Below the pieces are notes generated by a model, which was not told where the DNA came from, searched no databases, and saw nothing but the letters and a program-made list of their open reading frames with translations. From UHGV virus genome UHGV-0106827: DNA of 35,998 nt, one strand, 5' to 3'. The position numbers and the translations under genes were made by a program. This document shows, one piece after another, positions 6,934 through 34,569 of the stretch. This DNA comes from a virus. Each line of letters opens with the position of its first letter. The first letter of the stretch is position 1.

Positions 6934-9921
6934 ATGAGCTTAAGCGATCAGGTGGTAATGGCCACCAGCATAGAAACGCTGATCGAGCTGCTAAAGAACC
7001 TGCCCGATTATGGGCGGGTTTCGTATGTGGTGACAGCGAAGGGAGACGAGGTAAAAACAGCGTTTGATATCGTCGATGCCTCAGTTCTTTTGGTATCCAA
7101 TACTCTGGATGGGAAAATTAATCCAGACTATCCCCAGGAACTTCAGCCGCGCGACCGGACCCGCGCATCCAGCCTTCTTCAGGTCAACCAGATATCCAAG
7201 GATTTGCGTCCTGCCCAGCTTACCGATTCCGGTTTATCCAGCCATGGCGCGCCAATAATTGGTGAGGACAATGCCGTTGAGTCAGGTAATGGGCGGACCA
7301 TGGGGATCATTAAAGCCTATCAGGACGGTAATGCGGATCGGTATCGGGAGTACCTGATTGAACATGCGACCGAATTCGGCATACGGCCTGAAAAGGTTGA
7401 ATCAATGACGGCTCCGGTACTGGTGCGCCGCCGGTTAACGAAGGTTGACCGTGTTCAGTTTGCCAAGGACTCAAATATTTCTGATCTCCAGGAAATGGCA
7501 GCCAGTGAAAAGGCTTTTGTTGATGCCGACAGCATAACACCGGCGATGATGGCGTTGTTTAACCCGTCAGAAAGTGGAGATCTGCTTAGCCGCAGTAATG
7601 ACGCGTTTATTCGCGGATTCATGACGCAAGTTGGTGCCACACAGGCTGCTGGCCTTGTAACGGAAGATGGGCGACCAACACGGCAACTTGTAGACCGTAT
7701 ACAAAACGCGATCTTTGCCAAGGCATATAAGGATGCGCGCCTGGTAAGGATGGTTGCAGAAGAACCTGATCCGGATATGCGTAATGTTCTGACGGCGCTT
7801 AATGCGGCAGCCAATGATTTTGTCCAGATGCAGGCTTTATCAGGAGAAGCGCACAAGCAGGCTGTGACAACTATTGTTGATGGCATTGAGACAGCGGATA
7901 GCCTCGATAAAAAGGCGCTGGCGGCATTGAAAGATGCGGTAGACCTGGTAAGGCAATCGAAGGAGTCAGGCCAGCATATTACCGATGTTATTGCTCAGGG
8001 GGATATGTTCAGCGAAACGGCCTCGGAAGTGAAAGCACTCGCGTTTTTCATCGTCGCGAATAACCGTAGTGCGAAGCGTATGGCCACCGCCTTTAAATTG
8101 ATGGCTCAACGTATCAATGATGAGTTACAGCACCAGGGCCAGGCGCTCGGGGATATGTTTGGCGGCGGCGATGTGTCGTTACAGGATATCCTTCGCCAGG
8201 TATCTCAGGAACTGGAAAACGAAGGTATGCAAGGGATATCCGGCGGTCTTTTCGAGTCCGTTTCCGGCGGTAGTTACAACGGTGTTGCTCCATATACCAG
8301 TTTGCTATTACATCGGGCATCCGGCATCAAAGACATTATTCATCTGATCAGGCTGCTTTCCCGTACAGATCCCCAGGATGAGCAGCTTGTACAAGTGCTT
8401 GCGCATTTTGTCCGAATGCCTGTTGCCGACGTGAAAAAATGGTGCCGATTATTCGGTATCAGCAATTCGTTACTTCGCGGCTTGTTAAATCACGCATCCT
8501 CCCTTGGGCGCGACGGCTTTGATGAGATAGCGCAGGCGATACAAAACGGAGATATGCCACCAGCTATTGACTGGTTTTCCATTCGCCCAACTAGGGTGAA
8601 AGCATTCCTTAGTGCGGCGCAATCAGCATCACCATTGGCAGAAATGGTTCAGAGGTTATCGCTCATATTCACAGACCATACCGCGTTGGGGGATCTGACT
8701 CTGGACGAGATGAAAGAAGCCTCCATTCAGTGGGCCGATCAACAAAATGAGGTTAACTCAGACTTCTTGCCAGCATTCAGGAAGGCCGTTAGTAAAGCGG
8801 ATGATGCCCGTGGAATTCTGAAGGCATTTAAGGCATTGCAAAGTCGTGTTAATAAACATGTCGGTGATATCGATGCGGTAACGGCGGAAGGCCGGGATAT
8901 CCTTAAAGAGCACGGCATAACGCCAGAGTTTATTGATGAGATCAGGACTGATATGCAGCGTGAGGTCGTATCGTCCCTGCAAATCGTAGCCAGAGCGTTG
9001 GCGGATGCTAATCCGAAGAGTGCGGCCATTGTTAACCGTGTTATTGGTGATATTGAAGCATCGGAGGGCATGGGGGCGCTGAAACTCTTCCTTTCGCGAG
9101 CGTTTAATCCTAACGGCAATATTCTTCCTGGCATTATTGGTGAGGCTAAAAGGTATGTCAGTGAAGAAGAACTTGAGCAGCTTGACCAGCTACTCAAACG
9201 ATTTTCATATATCCCGCAGAAACGCTGGCAAATGAATCAGCGAAGTATGGATTCGGTCTACGAGAAAGTGTTATCTGCCATGAACAGTGCGATCGCCAAC
9301 TCATCCGTATCAGAAGAAAAAGCTCTTGAGTGGGCCGACTCTTTTATCACGGAAGAAGTGGAAGAAGCCCGCGCTGGACAGAATGGTGGAATAGACTTGC
9401 GCAAGGAACTTTCTGATATTTACCGTCTGACAGGCGGGAAAATATCAACCTTATCAAGGGTAATTCACCACAAGGGTAGGGCGTATGCAAATCTTAATGG
9501 TGTTGTTGCTGTCGATTTGCACGATGAAAATGCAAATGCACTGTGGCACGAGCTGGGTCATCATCTTGAGTACAGTAACCCGGGTTTGTTAGAGAAAGCC
9601 AGGTCATTCCTGAAGGCCAATGTTGAAGGGGATAAGCCATCTTTCGTTAATATCGGTGGGCGTGGCAAGCCTGAATGGTGCTTCAGATCTCGATTGAGTG
9701 ATATTTATATGGCGAAGGTATACCCGCCTGTCTCAGTGAGTAATTCTGGTAAATTTCGACACAAATCTCCGACAATTTCCAAAACGTCAGCAACGGAAGT
9801 GTTCTCTATGGCTCTTCAGTTGTATCATGACAAAGAGGCCGCTGCCGCATCACTGATGAATGGTGACGGATTGCTGGAACTGTTATTAGGTGTGGCAAAG
9901 GAGCTAAATAATGCAGATTAA
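6934..9921 (+). CDS. ddrB: DdrB (dar operon, large protein)
   Basis: 995 aa ORF following ddrA; size and position consistent with P1 DdrB. Confidence 0.65.
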   Translation: MSLSDQVVMATSIETLIELLKNLPDYGRVSYVVTAKGDEVKTAFDIVDASVLLVSNTLDGKINPDYPQELQPRDRTRASSLLQVNQISKDLRPAQLTDSGLSSHGAPIIGEDNAVESGNGRTMGIIKAYQDGNADRYREYLIEHATEFGIRPEKVESMTAPVLVRRRLTKVDRVQFAKDSNISDLQEMAASEKAFVDADSITPAMMALFNPSESGDLLSRSNDAFIRGFMTQVGATQAAGLVTEDGRPTRQLVDRIQNAIFAKAYKDARLVRMVAEEPDPDMRNVLTALNAAANDFVQMQALSGEAHKQAVTTIVDGIETADSLDKKALAALKDAVDLVRQSKESGQHITDVIAQGDMFSETASEVKALAFFIVANNRSAKRMATAFKLMAQRINDELQHQGQALGDMFGGGDVSLQDILRQVSQELENEGMQGISGGLFESVSGGSYNGVAPYTSLLLHRASGIKDIIHLIRLLSRTDPQDEQLVQVLAHFVRMPVADVKKWCRLFGISNSLLRGLLNHASSLGRDGFDEIAQAIQNGDMPPAIDWFSIRPTRVKAFLSAAQSASPLAEMVQRLSLIFTDHTALGDLTLDEMKEASIQWADQQNEVNSDFLPAFRKAVSKADDARGILKAFKALQSRVNKHVGDIDAVTAEGRDILKEHGITPEFIDEIRTDMQREVVSSLQIVARALADANPKSAAIVNRVIGDIEASEGMGALKLFLSRAFNPNGNILPGIIGEAKRYVSEEELEQLDQLLKRFSYIPQKRWQMNQRSMDSVYEKVLSAMNSAIANSSVSEEKALEWADSFITEEVEEARAGQNGGIDLRKELSDIYRLTGGKISTLSRVIHHKGRAYANLNGVVAVDLHDENANALWHELGHHLEYSNPGLLEKARSFLKANVEGDKPSFVNIGGRGKPEWCFRSRLSDIYMAKVYPPVSVSNSGKFRHKSPTISKTSATEVFSMALQLYHDKEAAAASLMNGDGLLELLLGVAKELNNAD

Positions 9922-10219
9922 AATCGCAGCGCCATTAGGCGGAGATGCCATTATCGAATTTGATGATAATGAAGAAGTTTCCGGGCGTTTAAGCATTATC
10001 TCCGGTGACATTACCGAGGACATGATCGCTGAAGCCATAGCTGGGGCAAATCCCAATAGCTATATGGGATTCGTTAACACCCTTGATGCTCCCGCAAGTG
10101 ATGTTCTCCGAACGCTGCATCTTTACGCTGGCTGGTTTGTTGATTGGCCAGCAGTAGATGGTGGCGATGAGGACGACGACGATGATTTTGGTGATCATGT
10201 AGACCAGATCGTATATTGA
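9911..10219 (+). CDS. Small acidic protein, last gene of the dar operon (hxr position in P1)
   Basis: 102 aa, overlaps the ddrB stop, C-terminal DGGDEDDDDDFGD acidic patch; followed by a terminator. Confidence 0.5.
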   Translation: MQIKIAAPLGGDAIIEFDDNEEVSGRLSIISGDITEDMIAEAIAGANPNSYMGFVNTLDAPASDVLRTLHLYAGWFVDWPAVDGGDEDDDDDFGDHVDQIVY

Positions 10220-10221
10220 AG

Positions 10222-10247
10222 AAATCCCGCCAATCGGCGGGATTTTT
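10222..10247. terminator. Rho-independent terminator between the convergent dar operon and the minus-strand operon
   Basis: Perfect 10-bp stem AAATCCCGCC/GGCGGGATTT with loop AATC, followed by TTTTT on the plus strand; an A-run precedes it, so it may act in both directions. Confidence 0.7.
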
Positions 10248-10250
10248 ACC

Positions 10251-11345
10251 TCACGAGAAGCTTTTTTCTGATGTCAGCCAACAGTGCTCGTGCAAATCTC
10301 TTGGTGGTTTTTCGACAAATGCCTCTTCAGCCACATCCTGCCAGGGGATTTGTTTAGCCCATTCAGCTATAGCGTTATGGTTTGCCGAGAATAACGGTAT
10401 TGTATAGGCCTTCAGCCAGTCTAATGTGCTGGAGTTGTGTTTTTGAGCGTGATGTTTCGCATGGTGTTTGGCGATCACGATCGTAGGCACTACCCATTTA
10501 CTACCGTCAGTCATTGTGAAGTGCATATTACGGGGAACAGATGACTTTTCCATCAACTCCCGAATCCCGGGAAATTTCCCCAAGATCAATCGGCGATATT
10601 CATCGCTATTGCGCCCACCAAACTCTTTGGCTTTGAATTCAAGATATGCTTCAGAAACGAGAGGTGAATCCTCTGTGTTTAGAGTTATCGCCGTGAAAAA
10701 ACCAGCAGGATTGTTTTTACTATGGGCCAACCGGTGATGCGAATCATAAAAGTACCCTTTCTCGCGTTCCGATGGTTTCGACAGCAACAGCAGGCGCGAG
10801 TCATAATTGGTTAAATTGCCAGTTATCACTGCATGAGCGCGATCGCTGATTTCCGCCGAGTTAATAACGATGAAAAGATCGTGCGGTCCAGTAAAACCAG
10901 CCAGAGACTCTTCGTTATTCAGACAATAGGTTATATAGACGCATCCCCATGTTTCACTGATATGCACCAACCCTTTGTCAGGGTGTATTCTGAAATAATT
11001 GCCAAGAAAAGGGTGTTTTTGGGTAACTCGCTCCCAATAACGGAACATATAGTCAATTATTGTTTTTCGACTATCGTTAATCGCAGGAGAAACAACCACT
11101 GTACGGGAACACGAATACAGTATTGTTTGCAGGATGCTAATCACTGCCACAATAGAGGTTTCCCCAATACCATGTGGTGTGGTGGCAGTGACTTTGGCTC
11201 CGGTGTTCTTTATCGCGTTAATAATTTTTGCTTGATGAGGTGTTAACTCAATATCAAGCAACTCTTTTGCTGCCAGTTCCCAATTGTCTTTATACCGTTC
11301 TATCAGTGCTAACCAGGCAGATTCATTCTGTATACGATTAATCAC
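10251..11345 (-). CDS. PacB-like terminase large-subunit ATPase-domain paralogue with degenerate Walker motifs, no nuclease domain
   Basis: 364 aa, colinear with PacB (31266-32750) residues ~10-260, e.g. RLLLLSKPSEREKGYFYDSHHRLA...NPAGFFTAITLNTEDSPLV vs [23 protein letters not shown]...[19 protein letters not shown]. Walker A HGTGKS is HGIGET here; Walker B IIDEAS is VINSAE. Confidence 0.7.
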   Translation of the reverse strand: MINRIQNESAWLALIERYKDNWELAAKELLDIELTPHQAKIINAIKNTGAKVTATTPHGIGETSIVAVISILQTILYSCSRTVVVSPAINDSRKTIIDYMFRYWERVTQKHPFLGNYFRIHPDKGLVHISETWGCVYITYCLNNEESLAGFTGPHDLFIVINSAEISDRAHAVITGNLTNYDSRLLLLSKPSEREKGYFYDSHHRLAHSKNNPAGFFTAITLNTEDSPLVSEAYLEFKAKEFGGRNSDEYRRLILGKFPGIRELMEKSSVPRNMHFTMTDGSKWVVPTIVIAKHHAKHHAQKHNSSTLDWLKAYTIPLFSANHNAIAEWAKQIPWQDVAEEAFVEKPPRDLHEHCWLTSEKSFS

Positions 11346-12126
11346 TTTCCACCTCTTCCGTGGTGTTTTCTTGCAGTTCTGTTAATGCAGCACGACATAG
11401 GTTCCGGGCATTGGCTATAGCCACACTTTTGACTTCATCCGTCATCGTGCAGGTAATGTACTGATCGAGTTCTTCAGCGCGGATGATGCTTTTGCCAATC
11501 AGAAACTGTATTTGCCAGAGCAGATCGGCATCCATAATCAGAATTTCTGCCGGGCCTTCAGGGCCAGCCGGGAAGGAAACATAAGACTGTTTGCCCAGGC
11601 CGATAACTCGACAACTTGCTTCAAGAATTGCGCGCTTGAGGTTTGACTTTGTAACGGAAACAGGTTGGTTTTCACCAGTGATTATGCCGTTGATATGGAA
11701 GTGGAAGGGCATGTAGCTTGAAATTCGCTCTACTTTCCATACGCCAGCAAGCGATCCTTCATGCAGCACAATGGGGGTAACCGCGAGTTTCATCTCACCA
11801 TATAACTGCTGGCAGATAGCTGGATTGCTGAATACATCCAAAGGTTCACACTCAAACAGCGGCGCAATCTGCATGAGGTCCATCATGGTCATACCAGGGG
11901 TACGAGCAGTAATGAATCTGCGCATGCCAGTATCCATTGTGCGCCAGATAGCTACACCATGCTTTTTGCTCACTTCTTCAGTAAAGCCAAGGTGGCACAT
12001 GATGGTTTTTTCGATAGCCAGATCAGAGATCGAAACCTTTTCGCCAGGCACACCATCATTATTGATGGTCACTTCGACACTCTGACCATTACGCAGGCGG
12101 TATTGAATTGCTTTAGTATTTTCCAC
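11338..12126 (-). CDS. Hypothetical protein (middle gene of a three-gene operon)
   Basis: 262 aa; its stop overlaps the start of the downstream PacB-like gene by 8 nt; no recognisable motif. Confidence 0.55.
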   Translation of the reverse strand: MENTKAIQYRLRNGQSVEVTINNDGVPGEKVSISDLAIEKTIMCHLGFTEEVSKKHGVAIWRTMDTGMRRFITARTPGMTMMDLMQIAPLFECEPLDVFSNPAICQQLYGEMKLAVTPIVLHEGSLAGVWKVERISSYMPFHFHINGIITGENQPVSVTKSNLKRAILEASCRVIGLGKQSYVSFPAGPEGPAEILIMDADLLWQIQFLIGKSIIRAEELDQYITCTMTDEVKSVAIANARNLCRAALTELQENTTEEVESD

Positions 12127-12132
12127 GTTAAA

Positions 12133-12810
12133 TCACTCCACTACAAACCAGTCACATGCCAGTAAGTCGCCTACAGAAGGAACCCACGGAACAACTACAC
12201 CTTGTGCATTTTTTAAGGCGAAATAAGCACCATACGGAACGAGGTCACCGGGGAAATATCCCTTAATGGCTTCCATTCGTGCCGGGTACTGCCCTTCAGG
12301 AACCAGCCAGCAGAATTGGTTTTCGCCGTTCCACCCGCGTCGAGCAACTTTCTTGCCATCCTTCAGCCACATCAGCGCGTCAGAAAAGTCGGCTGCTTCA
12401 AGGTCGATTTCTTCTTGTAGAGTAGCGATACCGCCAGCAGAAATAGTTACGTCCCTGGCTGTAATGAATGTCACCCCGTTGTGACCTTCAATGCTGAGTA
12501 ATGCCCCATTTTCGAAGAAGTCGTTAGTCCGACTAAAGCCTTCTTCAAATGTTTTTTCTGGTGAATAGGACAGAGATCCGTCCTCATAAGCGACCAGATA
12601 TCCGCCAATTTCTGGTCGGTGTTTTTGCAAAAACATTTTATCAACATGGACTTTTAACCCTTCTGGCTCAACGACTTCGATGTTGCAAAGAAGGACCACA
12701 TCCATTAGGGCGATAATTTCGATATCTTTGATTTTTGAGGCACGAACTGTTTTATGGCTTTTGTATTTTGGAAGTGCCGTCAAAAGCTCTTTCGTTGTCA
12801 TATTATTCAT
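12133..12810 (-). CDS. Hypothetical protein with a Trp-rich C-terminal module
   Basis: Preferred start ATG 12808-12810 (GAGGAAAG 6 nt upstream) gives 225 aa; the track ORF extends to 12930. C-terminal KDGKKVARRGWNGENQFCWLVP...VVVPWVPSVGDLLACDWFVVE resembles small phage domains of unknown function. Confidence 0.55.
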   Translation of the reverse strand: MNNMTTKELLTALPKYKSHKTVRASKIKDIEIIALMDVVLLCNIEVVEPEGLKVHVDKMFLQKHRPEIGGYLVAYEDGSLSYSPEKTFEEGFSRTNDFFENGALLSIEGHNGVTFITARDVTISAGGIATLQEEIDLEAADFSDALMWLKDGKKVARRGWNGENQFCWLVPEGQYPARMEAIKGYFPGDLVPYGAYFALKNAQGVVVPWVPSVGDLLACDWFVVE

Positions 12811-12824
12811 AGTCTTTCCTCTGC

Positions 12825-13007
12825 TTAAAAACTGATGTATTGCGCCTTCAGGTGGGTCAGGAATGTTTTCCCACCAGCGAAAGCAATATCTCGGGGTGTT
12901 CTGTTCGTTAAAAACGCGTTCCATTGCCAACTTTGGCGTTTTTTAGCGAGTTCGTGCTTTTGTTGGCGTTTGGACCACCGCTTTTCTTTCAGTCGTTTTT
13001 TACTCAT
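12825..13007 (-). CDS. Possible small highly basic protein between ssb and the downstream operon
   Basis: 60 aa, MSKKRLKEKRWSKRQQKHELAKKRQ...; fits exactly between the ssb stop (13013) and the RBS of the 12810 gene; no strong SD. Confidence 0.3.
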   Translation of the reverse strand: MSKKRLKEKRWSKRQQKHELAKKRQSWQWNAFLTNRTPRDIAFAGGKTFLTHLKAQYISF

Positions 13008-13520: not shown

Positions 13521-13537
13521 AAATTAATTAGAGCAAT
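13521..13537 (-). promoter_or_regulatory. C1 repressor operator (16/17 match to ATTGCTCTAATAAATTT)
   Basis: Plus strand reads AAATTAATTAGAGCAAT; lies in the ssb-lyz divergent intergenic region. Confidence 0.6.
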
Positions 13538-17315: not shown

Positions 17316-20300
17316 ATGAACAAGCTATCTATGGGGGTGTTTCGCTGTTCAAGTGTCAGCGAAATATTGAAATACATTAGGGCAATAACATCTCACCGAG
17401 CGCCGATTAGATACGGCGTGGAAAAGGTGGAAGGCAAAAGCTATGACCGACTACGCCGGGAGGCGAATCAGAAGGCGATAGATTTGCTTAATTCGCTGGT
17501 GGACGGCGCGACACTGACAGATGAACAGCGCCAGATCCTGGCTGGGTACACCGGTGAAGGCGGCATTGGCGGGTCCGTCTCCGAATATTACACACCAAAG
17601 CCGATCGCTGAAGGTGTCTGGGAGATCATGAAGCTCTACGGCGCGGACGTAGGTAACACTCTGGAACCATCGGCGGGAACCGGCGTTTTTAATGAGACAA
17701 AACCGGTTGGTACGGTGATGACCGCGACTGAGATCAGCAGTGTTTCCGGTCGTATAAACCAGTTGTTACACCCGGAAGACAGCGTACAGATTTCCCCGTT
17801 CGAACAGCTGGCTATAAGCACGCCTAACGATTCATTCGACCATGTTGTGGGTAACGTTCCGTTCGGCGGTCGTGATAACACACGCAACATCGATAAGCCT
17901 TACGCAGAAGAAACGGACATGGGTTCTTACTTCATGCTCCGCATGCTGGACAAGATAAAGCCAGGCGGATTCATGTGCGTGATTGTGCCGCCGTCCATTG
18001 TTTCAGGTTCAAACATGAAGCGGTTACGCCTGCGCCTATCACGGAAAGCTGAATTTCTTGGTGCCCACCGCTTGCCTACCGGTACTTTTGACGCAAACGG
18101 GACCAGTACAGTCGTTGATGTGGTGCTGATGCGCAAACATCCGGCAGAGATGGCTGAGAAAATCCCCCTGGTGGATGAAAGCACTCTTGAATCGGCAAAT
18201 GTGCTTTGGCCAACGTTTATTTCTGGCAAGTGGTTTGAAAAGGATGGCCGCCGGTTTGTTCATGGCACCCAGGAAAAGGGCTTCCAGGGGCGTATTGAGG
18301 TTCGTGCCGACGGTCAGATTGATAACCAGGCTCTTAAAGCGAAGCTGATTCATCGTTTCGAAAGCCGTATCGACTGGTCTTTGCTCGATATGGCTGAACC
18401 GTCACTGACCGCAGACGTTGTTGGTGAAGGGGAAATGCGCCTGATTAATGGCGTATGGCAAAAATATGCTGGTGGTCGCTGGATTGAAGCTGATGCCGGG
18501 AAGGAACTTAAAATTGATGCTGCCAGTTATGGCGCGGATAGCTGGGAGGCTCTTCAGCGTAACCTGACTACAACAGAAGGCCGTCTCGGTATGACATTTA
18601 CCCAGATGGCAAATGTCCGCGATAAGTACACCACATCAATCAGCGACGATATGGTGCAGCTGGTGGACTGGATTAACAGCCAGCCTGAAAAATACCGTGA
18701 ACGCTTGTATCGTGGGGCGATGATTGGCCGGATGTTAATTGAATATCAGGATATGAAGGCCGCCGGGCATAGTGCTGAACAAATCGAACAGCAGCGCCTT
18801 TCTCTGGTATCCCGTTTGCAGGCAGAGATTGACCGTTTTGGTAACCCTGGTCGCGGTCCGATAGCTAAATTATCGGGAAGCGGTGCGCGCGCCTGGTTTG
18901 CTTTCCGTGGTGCAATTAAGCTGGATGGCACTATTTCTGACGAGCTGACAGGAAAGCTGGTTACGCATGATTCCAGCGCCAGTTATGACTCCACCAGCTA
19001 TCAGGACACCCTGCGTTATCTCTATAGCGATCTTACCCGCGATCCAATCCAGCTCGATGATTTCCGCCTTGCGTTTACCGGCGAATTGCCAGCCAGTGAT
19101 GAAGAGTTGCTTAATTTATTGGCCAGCACTCCTGGTATTGCGGTTTCACCGTATGGCGGGATTGTTCCGTTCGCCCGCGCCACCAGCGGCGACATTAACG
19201 AGATAGTGGCTCCAAAACAGGAATTCCTCGCCACGCTCCCCGACGGTCCAGTAAAGAACAACGTCCTTAATCAGCTGGCAGCGATCGAAGAGAAGCGCAT
19301 CAAGACGCCAGCAGAGAATATCCGGTTTAAGCTCAATAGCCGTTGGTTCGACCGTTCCGTCATTCTGGAGTTTTTGCAGGAAAACGGCTATCCGGATCTG
19401 CGCTATGTGCAGTCAGTGCAGCTGGAAGGCGACGAAATGGTTTCTGACACCTATCACGGTGGTGATGGCCTGTTCGTCGGGCACCGATACGGTGTCGTCC
19501 AGCGCAAGGATAAAGAAACAGGCGAGATCCGCTACGAGTGGGACCGTAAATCAGGTGAAAACGCGACCGGGTTCCCGGCACAGCTGGAAAAGTATCTCAA
19601 TGGTGCGCGTATCGGTGGCAAAGATAGCGCGACGGCGAACGGCTACCGCGAGCAGATGGCACTGCTTGAGGACCAGTTCAATAAGTGGATCAAGACGCAC
19701 GATCGCTACGATGAGCTGGTTGCCAAATACAACGATGTGTTCAATAGCAATATCCCGTTTGAACACTCTGGCGATCCGCTTGGGTTGAAGGGATTAAGCG
19801 GTAAGCGCCAGCCATTTGATTACCAGAATAGCGAGGTGCGCCGACTGTCCGAAGATGGGCGCGGCATCCTGGGCTTCGGCACCGGGCTGGGTAAAACCAC
19901 GACCGCGCTGGCGCTTGAGGCGTTCAACTATGAGAACGGTCGCTCCACCCGTACTGCTTATGTAGTGCCTAAATCAGTGCTGGAAAATTGGTATTACGAA
20001 GCTAAAGAATTCCTGAGTGAAGAGGCATTCAGTAACTACTTGTTCGTCGGTCTTGATGTGCTGATGGATGGCGATCAGATTCGCCAGGTGCCGGTGCTCG
20101 ATGAGAACGGTAAACCTGTTCTTGGTACTGATGGCACTCCAGTTATGCGCGATGCTCTTAAGCTGGCAGATGAAGCCACTATCACGGCGCGGATGAATGC
20201 GATCCCGCACTCAAATTACCGTGCAGTCGTGTTTACCAAAGAACAATACGCCCGCATTCCGCTACGTGATGACACCGTAGATGAGCATGCACAAGACATG

Positions 20301-27687: not shown

Positions 27688-27696
27688 ATTATAGCA
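27688..27696 (-). promoter_or_regulatory. Extended -10 promoter (TGCTATAAT) for ref, overlapping a C1 operator
   Basis: Minus strand reads ATTGCTCTAATTGATTGCTATAAT; no good -35, consistent with an extended -10 promoter. Confidence 0.5.
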
Positions 27697-27711
27697 ATCA
27701 ATTAGAGCAAT
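27695..27711 (-). promoter_or_regulatory. C1 operator (14/17 to consensus) upstream of ref
   Basis: Minus strand ATTGCTCTAATTGATTG. Confidence 0.55.
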
Positions 27712-28170: not shown

Positions 28171-28187
28171 CAAATAATTAGAGCAAT
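28171..28187 (-). promoter_or_regulatory. C1 operator (14/17) between cre and the cra-like gene
   Basis: Minus strand ATTGCTCTAATTATTTG. Confidence 0.55.
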
Positions 28188-29731: not shown

Positions 29732-29748
29732 AGAATTATTAGAGCAAT
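29732..29748 (-). promoter_or_regulatory. C1 operator (15/17), Op99 region
   Basis: Minus strand ATTGCTCTAATAATTCT. Confidence 0.6.
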
Positions 29749-29808: not shown

Positions 29809-29835
29809 TTGACAATTGCTCTAATAAATTATAGT
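29809..29835 (+). promoter_or_regulatory. C1-repressible promoter: -35 TTGACA, operator ATTGCTCTAATAAATTA in the spacer, -10 TATAGT
   Basis: 16/17 operator match at 29815-29831 flanked by near-consensus -35 and -10 hexamers; reads towards coi and c1. Confidence 0.6.
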
Positions 29836-30069: not shown

Positions 30070-30279
30070 ATGGCTTTCATTCCACCAACCATCGACGACG
30101 TTAGACATTGCTCTAACGCTTTATCTGTAGACCCCGCCGAAACCGACGCTGCCCGCGCCATTGCTGAACACTACTCAAAGATATCCAATCAGGAGTACCG
30201 CATCACCCAAGACGACCTGGATGATCTCACTGACACAATCGAATATCTCATGGCCACTAACCAGCCAGACTCACAATAA
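30070..30279 (+). CDS. coi: Coi (C1 inactivator)
   Basis: 69 aa ORF immediately upstream of c1, matching P1 Coi in size and position. Confidence 0.75.
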   Translation: MAFIPPTIDDVRHCSNALSVDPAETDAARAIAEHYSKISNQEYRITQDDLDDLTDTIEYLMATNQPDSQ

Positions 30280-30295
30280 ATGCACTAATAAATCT
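30279..30295 (+). promoter_or_regulatory. C1 operator-like site (14/17) between coi and c1
   Basis: AATGCACTAATAAATCT directly after the coi stop, upstream of a TATAAT at 30317-30322. Confidence 0.4.
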
Positions 30296-34552: not shown

Positions 34553-34569
34553 CAATACATTAGAGCAAT
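34553..34569 (-). promoter_or_regulatory. C1 operator (14/17) upstream of lpa
   Basis: Minus strand ATTGCTCTAATGTATTG. Confidence 0.55.

Follow-up and report, generated by a model that had tools for sequence, protein, structure and literature searches.

Large terminases (TerL) are the best-conserved hallmark of the tailed phages and a main target of bacterial pattern-recognition immunity. In P1 the large terminase is PacB, which was found to be essential by CRISPR interference (CRISPRi) (PMC10695390). EcAvs2 and Upx need no more than the ATPase domain of TerL for recognition, and the interface with EcAvs2 includes the terminase-bound ATP and a bridging ATP (bioRxiv 10.64898/2026.04.30.721860). 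The same study reported that vs.8 of T4, a paralogue of the TerL ATPase, keeps Walker A and Walker B, engages EcAvs2 and is toxic together with it. Here we analysed a stretch of 35998 nucleotides from the virus genome UHGV-0106827 (the window, which means this stretch at its full length), and describe a gene for a protein of 364 amino acids (aa) that we call pseudo-TerL. Pseudo-TerL is a selectively maintained pseudoenzyme and not a decaying pseudogene.

The window is a P1-like phage-plasmid (Punavirus). The region 9900-12200 is 95-99% identical to P1-type phages in a DNA search, and the window carries the genes ddrB, hxr, isaA, ssb, pro/prt, darB and pacA/pacB.

Comparison of pseudo-TerL with PacB

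The gene, its parts and its counterpart pacB are located as follows:
10251-11345, minus strand: pseudo-TerL gene, 364 aa, GTG start, TGA stop; Walker-dead, PacB-derived ATPase-fold domain plus a small early-phage domain
31266-32750, minus strand: pacB, the bona fide large terminase of the same element, 494 aa; parent type of the paralogue
10560-11345, minus strand: residues 1-262, TerL-type ATPase fold (RecA-like core and lid) without the catalytic residues
11157-11177, minus strand: Walker A remnant P57-H-G-I-G-E62-T63 (PacB: G-H-G-T-G-K62-S), placed by alignments
10854-10877, minus strand: Walker B remnant L157-F-I-V-I161-N162-S-A164 (PacB: L-Y-I-I-D162-E163-A-S), placed by alignments
10254-10544, minus strand: tail domain, residues 268-364, including a His-rich helix (293-303), placed by homology to a family of standalone proteins

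An earlier reading of the bare sequence (the original prediction) had described the protein as a catalytically degenerate paralogue of the PacB ATPase domain, colinear with the N-terminal part of PacB. This proved correct: residues 11-272 of pseudo-TerL align colinearly with residues 11-274 of the PacB from the window (BLASTP; 36% identity and 58% positives over 266 aa, E=6e-55), and by these values the similarity is far above chance. The PacB of the window has the canonical motifs GHGTGKS and IIDEAS and matches phrog_2 ("terminase large subunit", E=2.5e-40), while pseudo-TerL is a full-length match to phrog_5902. Where Walker A of PacB reads S56-G-H-G-T-G-K62-S, pseudo-TerL has T56-P-H-G-I-G-E62-T; K62 is Glu in the alignment, so that the change from HGTGKS to HGIGET had been read correctly. 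In Walker B, L-L-Y-I-I-D162-E163-A-S of PacB faces D-L-F-I-V-I161-N162-S-A, with Asp replaced by Ile and the catalytic Glu by Asn. Both acidic residues are indeed gone, but the pairing of IIDEAS with VINSAE that had been proposed is one residue off, the correct one being IIDEAS with IVINSA. The alignment thus retains neither the Walker lysine nor the acidic residues. The C-motif Thr and the conserved H153 of PacB are lost as well.

Pseudo-TerL ends at residue 364 and lacks the RNase H-like nuclease domain of the PacB type. In its place stands an unrelated tail, as had been predicted: residues 268-364 show no similarity to the C-terminal region of PacB (275-494), either by BLASTP or when a profile of the tail was compared using hhalign (probability 0.1). 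A frameshifted or diverged remnant of the nuclease was ruled out, since the tail does not resemble the PacB C-terminus and instead matches a separate family of standalone proteins. The tail had also been called His-rich. This is true for one helix, K293-H-H-A-K-H-H-A-Q-K-H303 (5 His in 11 residues), but not for the rest of the tail.

The AlphaFold2 model of pseudo-TerL is confident, with a predicted local distance difference test score (pLDDT) of 91.5 and a predicted template modelling score (pTM) of 0.87. The best Foldseek matches were solved TerL structures, namely Sf6 gp2 (E=2.3e-9), D6E TerL and T4 gp17, and the ATPase domain of P74-26 TerL was matched with a template modelling score of 0.65-0.67 normalised to the target. 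According to the model, pseudo-TerL keeps the TerL ATPase fold and the lid. The tail is modelled at a pLDDT of 76-93 as two short strands, three or four helices and a terminal strand pair, and has no match among solved structures.

Five defining features of a working TerL were compared. Pseudo-TerL has the ATPase fold and fails the other four: it lacks the Walker A Lys, the Walker B DE pair and the nuclease domain, and it is not encoded in the packaging module, being located between isaA and hxr about 20 kb away from pacA/pacB. Judged from its residues, it cannot be a canonical ATPase or nuclease. Since four of the five features are missing, the annotation as terminase large subunit is inappropriate, and the public label of this kind at MH422554.1 16006-17100 (L002 4352-5446) is misleading; RefSeq/PGAP records label the gene "hypothetical protein".

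The Walker-degenerate clade and its maintenance

Word-indexed homologue searches were insensitive, with three matches for the full protein and nine for the family profile. The relatives of pseudo-TerL were revealed by an exhaustive phmmer search of 1.84 billion representatives, which gave 742 matches; the Walker motifs were tabulated for the best 150 of them. Among these 150, the near-full-length TerLs (about 400-860 aa) kept the P-loop Lys and the acidic Walker B pair with few exceptions, mostly as GxGK[ST] and DE, a few having EE or a displaced P-loop glycine. Short proteins in the same set keep neither Walker motif. Clade members have lengths of 230-444 aa. The Walker-degenerate proteins, each with length, Walker A remnant and Walker B remnant, are:
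Target/P0001: 364 aa, GIGET, IVINSA
P0124: 366 aa, GIGHK, IVMDAA
P0002: 438 aa as called, about 364 aa from the likely start, GIGRP, IIVDSA
P0126: 266 aa, GIGRA, IVVNAA
P0127: 264 aa, GVGTH, IVL-HAA
P0129: 264 aa, GVGMH, IITDAA
P0130: 444 aa, GTGIS, IIPDAT
P0133: 263 aa, GIGCK, ICPNAN
P0134: 252 aa, GVGTN, IVPQAS
P0163: 244 aa, GMGRS, IVDNAA
P0180: 230 aa, GMGRN, IVDNAA
P0162: 268 aa, Walker A not alignable, VVSKAA

A comparison by column of 29 canonical TerLs with 11 degenerate proteins (PacB numbering) showed that S56, G57, H58, K62, Q91, H153, D162, E163, S165 and T193, each 90-100% conserved among the canonical proteins, have been lost from the degenerate ones. The P-loop Lys is present in all 29 canonical TerLs and in none of the 11 degenerate proteins. 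The structural positions Q38, G59, G61, E147, G151, G197, F199, S227, P228 and G256 are kept in the degenerate set.

In a neighbour-joining (NJ) tree of the ATPase domain, the degenerate proteins without P0162 formed one clade with 90% bootstrap, nested among the PacB-like TerLs, although long-branch attraction could produce this monophyly. The clade has at least 11 members, the target together with P0124, P0002, P0126, P0127, P0129, P0130, P0133, P0134, P0163 and P0180. Every member on a typable contig belongs to a P1/D6-like phage-plasmid; the typed contigs (P0124, P0126 and P0134) carry the C1 repressor of the P1/P7 type (Pfam PF27008), a Cre-like integrase and genes of PacA/PacB size. The contigs of P0127, P0129, P0130, P0133 and P0163 are too short or not typable. 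P0162 (L090 644-1450) branches near P0143 in a different TerL group with low support (38%), and appears from this placement to be a second Walker-degenerate, nuclease-less TerL ATPase-domain protein that has arisen independently.

The gene is kept under purifying selection. Pairwise ratios of non-synonymous to synonymous substitution rates (dN/dS) were 0.17-0.27 among the P1-type orthologues, the window and L015 differing at 31 synonymous and 27 non-synonymous sites, and 0.07-0.12 for the most diverged pairs in a second lineage. The gene was found in 120 PLSDB plasmids (106 from Escherichia, nine from Salmonella, four from Klebsiella and one from Shigella), in 119 of them with at least 80% query coverage; for comparison, isaA was found in 406 records and pacB in 617. 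Of 5426 complete E. coli genomes, 100 carry it, as do three phage records; P1, SJ46 and D6 lack it. Homologues at about 50% identity share length and architecture with the target. The dN/dS values, the intact reading frame in 119/120 plasmids and the confident model of a TerL ATPase fold are the reasons for not regarding the gene as a decaying pseudogene. Thus, the paralogue foreseen in the original prediction is in addition a member of a clade under purifying selection.

Within the clade, the tail is found only in the target, P0124 and P0002 (with the L017 group). P0126, which is nested with P0002, has lost the tail as read from the tree. Small open reading frames (ORFs) next to tail-less clade members in L089, L090 and L101 are unrelated to the tail, and no separate tail gene was found there. 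P0130 (L101 7001-8335) carries a different C-terminal extension of about 185 aa. Part of it (GWFPGMEKATN...) was aligned by MAFFT with the start of the PacB nuclease domain but lacks the catalytic Asp; P0130 may therefore be an evolutionary intermediate with a degenerate nuclease remnant.

The genes in front of these relatives differ. The start of P0133 falls in the stop region of a gene for a Ref-like RecA-dependent nuclease (PF16786, phrog_2321; L092 6336-7792, also in L093 and L094, on contigs of up to 84 kb), and the two may form a pair of a nuclease and a dead ATPase. P0127 follows a radical-SAM gene, and P0134 stands alone near parM. Directly upstream of P0134, about 880 bp of a P1-like contig (L095 6119-7001) contain no called gene.

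The tail family and the genomic setting

The tail has relatives that occur as separate proteins. With tblastn, residues 256-364 matched the 98-aa standalone protein gp35 of Cronobacter phage JK004, which is encoded shortly downstream of the DnaB helicase gene. The tail also matched the C-terminus of a 471-aa coiled-coil DUF1351-like protein of Xanthomonas CP2-like phages, whose gene adjoins genes for a recombinase, an exonuclease and SSB. A tail profile made from four sequences retrieved 934 protein clusters; among the 120 of them that were listed, almost all are 94-123 aa long and none has a Pfam domain. Example loci (P0004-P0123) are:
L003 4010-4306
L005 6001-6315
L009 6001-6315
L004 1885-3300

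The family corresponds to the C-terminal part of the phrog_17928 profile and has the core MPDGS-W-VP..IA..RA..YA...PLF...DWA.NNMNWSDV, with which the target tail aligns over its full length. Residues D280, S282, W284, P287, I291, A292, F319, W329 and W356 are invariant in the tail and the standalone proteins. The His-rich helix is common to the fused proteins P0002 and P0124, whereas the standalone family has R/Y at these positions. In lambdoid prophages of the Enterobacter type the family gene is located between the replication genes and ninB, and in an Acinetobacter prophage it comes after the genes for YqaJ-RecT-UvrD. The phages with the standalone form (lambdoid, Xanthomonas and other) have no TerL-like partner. 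These alignments place the tail in a widespread family of early-region phage proteins of about 100 aa that is unrelated to PacB.

On the minus strand of the window, a C1 operator is followed by ssb, a Tad2-like (DUF2829) gene, isaA and pseudo-TerL, and then by a hairpin facing the convergent hxr:
13521-13537, minus strand: C1 operator-like site with one mismatch to the consensus, upstream of ssb and equivalent to Ossb/Op21 of P1
13013-13501, minus strand: ssb, in position and orientation as the annotated ssb of P1 and MH422554; first gene of the presumed operon
12133-12930, minus strand: Tad2-like (DUF2829) gene, PF11195 with E=2.3e-22; first gene of a recurring cassette
11338-12126, minus strand: isaA, 262 aa, immediately upstream of pseudo-TerL, 96% identical to P1 IsaA
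10222-10245: perfect 10-bp GC-rich hairpin AAATCCCGCC-GATT-GGCGGGATTT, between the convergent stops of hxr (10219) and pseudo-TerL (10251)
13521-13537, 17370-17386, 27695-27711, 28171-28187, 29732-29748, 29815-29831, 30279-30295 and 34553-34569: the eight C1-operator-like sites of the window

The isaA stop codon overlaps the GTG start of pseudo-TerL (junction GAGGTGGAAAGTGATTAA); the GTG lies 8 nt before the end of the stop codon and is preceded by the Shine-Dalgarno-like (SD-like) sequence GAGGTGG. The hairpin is likely a bidirectional terminator, judged from its form and position, and was not flagged by the consensus terminator scan. Consensus scans of the minus strand within the cassette showed no terminator-like site and no sigma-70-like promoter for pseudo-TerL. 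The C1-operator pattern gave eight matches in the window compared to 0.17 expected by chance, and the sites recognised in this way mark immunity-controlled promoters across the window. We infer that pseudo-TerL is co-transcribed from the C1-repressed ssb promoters, so that it would be expressed early after induction or infection and be silent in lysogens. Since the gene is located behind a C1 operator and no promoter of its own was found, we predict repression in the prophage state. Of the roles suggested in the original prediction (modulation of packaging, a decoy for Avs-type sensors, interference with competitors), interference from the lysogen is therefore disfavoured.

The original prediction had left open whether the gene corresponds to a known P1 gene. 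There is no counterpart in the P1 reference (NC_005856), in which IS1 and isaB occupy the slot between hxr and isaA. IsaB as a diverged counterpart was ruled out, as it gives E=0.084 against the target in BLASTP and does not match PacB. Because the P1 slot holds IS1 and the unrelated isaB, the gene has no P1 name, and this is also why it was overlooked. The possibility that IsaA is a paralogue of PacA, the small terminase (TerS), which would make the two genes a pseudo-terminase pair, was ruled out at the sequence level; IsaA has no match in Pfam, NCBIfam, PADLOC or PDB sequences.

The isaA-IS1-isaB region has been described as a variable hotspot of P1-like phage-plasmids, termed RD-2 (PMC6906374) or region 2 (PMC9603915), and neither paper mentions a terminase-like gene there. 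The order of Tad2-like gene, IsaA homologue and pseudo-TerL homologue recurs at a second hotspot, flanked by cre-dUTPase on one side and doc-phd or humD on the other; the elements concerned (L017, L098 and L103) are D6-like or more distant. The target shares 49-53% identity with the pseudo-TerL homologues at this site, and IsaA of the window shares 47-48% with the IsaA homologues of L017 and L098; in L103 a 268-aa gene is assigned to the IsaA position by its location only. SJ46 and D6 have the Tad2-like gene and IsaA only. In the window, the cassette is adjoined by the darA/ddrB anti-restriction operon. Tad2 was scored as anti-Thoeris in 56% of the phage-plasmids of the P1 type and in 93% of those of the D6 type (bioRxiv 10.1101/2025.09.12.675607).

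The Tad2-like gene is missing from reference P1, and in the window it has an extra N-terminal domain. Its alignment with phrog_872 begins at residue 41, and it is 70% identical to the counterpart in L103; translation probably begins at Met41, near position 12810. P1 IsaA is annotated with an N-terminal extension of 58 aa, which corresponds to the in-frame leader of the Tad2-like ORF (NTPRYCFRWWENIPDPPEGAIHQFLSR). Thus, the annotated start of P1 isaA is probably over-extended into a leader shared with this ORF.

Possible functions and comparison with known systems

Homology combined with loss of the catalytic residues, the TerL fold, purifying selection and the support for the clade lead us to favour the reading that pseudo-TerL is a binding-only mimic of the TerL ATPase, competing with the real terminase for a partner that binds TerL; we give this a probability of about 35%. 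The protein would be made early after derepression, ahead of the late PacAB. The preferred partner would be a terminase-sensing immune receptor of the host, of the Avs1-3 or Upx type, a preference that is based on the recognition of the TerL ATPase domain by EcAvs2 and Upx and on the engagement of EcAvs2 by vs.8, and that fits the variable hotspot, the Tad2-like gene two genes upstream, the recurrence of the cassette, the neighbouring darA/ddrB operon and the predicted early expression under C1 control. The mimic would occupy the receptor non-productively, offering EcAvs2 no terminase-bound ATP/Mg site to contact. PacA or the portal would be the second choice, and pac cleavage and packaging could then be tempered or timed. 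With any of these partners, the tail domain might add a second contact or a steric block. It might also be that the loss of the ATP site merely keeps the paralogue itself invisible to the sensors. The wider proposal, that P1/D6-like phage-plasmids maintain a family of early-expressed dead-terminase mimics which, through the loss of their ATP site, bind Avs1-3/Upx without triggering them, shield the late terminase and form a portable counter-defence cassette with the Tad2-like protein and IsaA, seems rather unlikely at present.

Several observations weigh against a binding mimic. The known TerL-like proteins that are not terminases (T4 vs.8, Ksap1/2) activate Avs2 and do not inhibit it, an anti-Avs decoy of this kind has not been described, and the PADLOC library of defence-system models gives no match to pseudo-TerL. 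Other members of the clade have unrelated upstream genes (Ref-like nuclease, radical-SAM) or none, and the tail family is found beside replication and recombination genes in phages without a TerL-like partner; both contexts fit a role in DNA metabolism at least as well. The surfaces for contact with PacA or the portal may not be preserved, given the 36% identity to the cognate PacB. Since P1, SJ46 and D6 do without the gene, it is dispensable for packaging.

The main and close rival is a scaffold that has been repurposed for early DNA metabolism (replication, recombination or repair), in which the dead ATPase fold would be a module for binding DNA or protein and the tail would dock to SSB, a helicase or RecA filaments, possibly together with IsaA. 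We regard this as possible, if somewhat doubtful. It would explain the position of the gene in the ssb operon, and it agrees with the company that the tail family keeps: standalone homologues directly behind the DnaB or O/P replication genes of lambdoid prophages, after YqaJ-RecT-UvrD in Acinetobacter, and at the end of the Xanthomonas CP2-like protein with its recombinase, exonuclease and SSB neighbours. The RecA-dependent nuclease gene in whose stop region P0133 begins, and the D6-type cassette, which comes after dUTPase and near humD and hot, point in the same direction. However, early regions gather many kinds of accessory gene, and little can be concluded from adjacency. Pseudo-TerL showed no motif for binding DNA or a partner, and its tail has no match in solved structures. 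Most P1-like elements lack the gene and yet replicate normally, and in P1 isaA and ssb are non-essential by CRISPRi (PMC10695390).

It is distinctly improbable in our view that pseudo-TerL regulates or poisons the packaging of its own element, a possibility that can also be seen as a variant of the mimic model. Inactive complexes with PacA, PacB or the portal would in that case delay pac cleavage or modulate headful packaging. In favour of it, the protein is PacB-derived and every typed carrier also encodes PacA/PacB; moreover, the lineages have diverged to a similar degree in this protein (49% identity when the window protein is compared with P0124) and in the cognate PacBs (56%), consistent with a long co-residence. 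In the BLASTP alignment with PacB, identity is visibly highest from the C-motif to the lid (residues ~180-260), a region that takes part in subunit contacts in published models of the TerL ring. The N-terminal 50 residues, however, show no preferential conservation with the cognate PacB, and a packaging role is hard to reconcile with an accessory gene that P1, SJ46 and D6 lack, that lies far from pacA/pacB and that is predicted to be early while PacAB acts late. The view that the gene is an artefact of annotation, or what a duplication of pacB has left behind without function, is almost certainly wrong. The missing catalytic residues and nuclease domain, the many relatives without the gene and the existence of tail-less (P0126) and other truncated forms could be read in this way, but dN/dS is 0.07-0.27 in two lineages, the frame is intact in nearly all plasmids, distant homologues have retained length and architecture, and the predicted structure is compact and of high confidence. 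The overlap of the start codon with the isaA stop and the SD-like sequence in front of it also speak against a relic.

If pseudo-TerL is a decoy, it would be the first case in which an anti-defence protein has evolved from the viral protein recognised by the sensor. A conserved terminase-ATPase pseudoenzyme in a much-studied phage group gives a handle on mimics of a phage's own proteins that act against terminase sensors, and on the regulation of terminase assembly. In addition, two uncharacterised families are defined, the dead-PacB clade and the early-region domain of about 100 aa (at least 934 clusters), and the cassette of Tad2-like gene, IsaA and pseudo-TerL is recurrent in clinically widespread phage-plasmids of E. 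coli, Salmonella and Klebsiella. In a literature search that was not exhaustive, we found no description of a family of Walker-dead TerL paralogues in P1-like elements.

Of the known systems, PacB itself is the closest relative. The whole ATPase domain is homologous, the fold is the same, pseudo-TerL is nested among PacB-like proteins in the tree, and the two share the Q-motif Q38, the P-loop glycines G59/G61, E147-x-L-A-G151, GYFYD, SPLV and YGGR. Unlike PacB, pseudo-TerL has no Walker A Lys, Walker B Asp/Glu, C-motif Thr, H153 or nuclease domain; it is not encoded beside pacA but in an accessory early operon under C1 control, and it carries a foreign C-terminal domain. The standalone proteins of about 100 aa such as JK004 gp35 align with tail residues 268-364 from end to end, but they consist of a single domain, and only the fused versions of the P1/D6 type have the His-rich helix.

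Satellites encode proteins that interfere with packaging or redirect it, such as Ppi of Staphylococcus aureus pathogenicity islands (SaPI) and the TerS variants of phage-inducible chromosomal islands (PICI); they target the TerS of the helper and are not derived from TerL. Pseudo-TerL would resemble them in concept, as a small accessory protein whose effect on the terminase machinery comes from binding and not from catalysis, but it is encoded on the phage-plasmid itself. The nearest described analogue is vs.8 of T4, likewise a nuclease-less phage paralogue of the ATPase domain of its own TerL (gp17) that is encoded away from the terminase genes. Pseudo-TerL differs from it in being Walker-degenerate, in belonging to a clade of the PacB type and not of the gp17 type, and in its fusion to an extra domain, so that by this comparison the resemblance is one of concept only.

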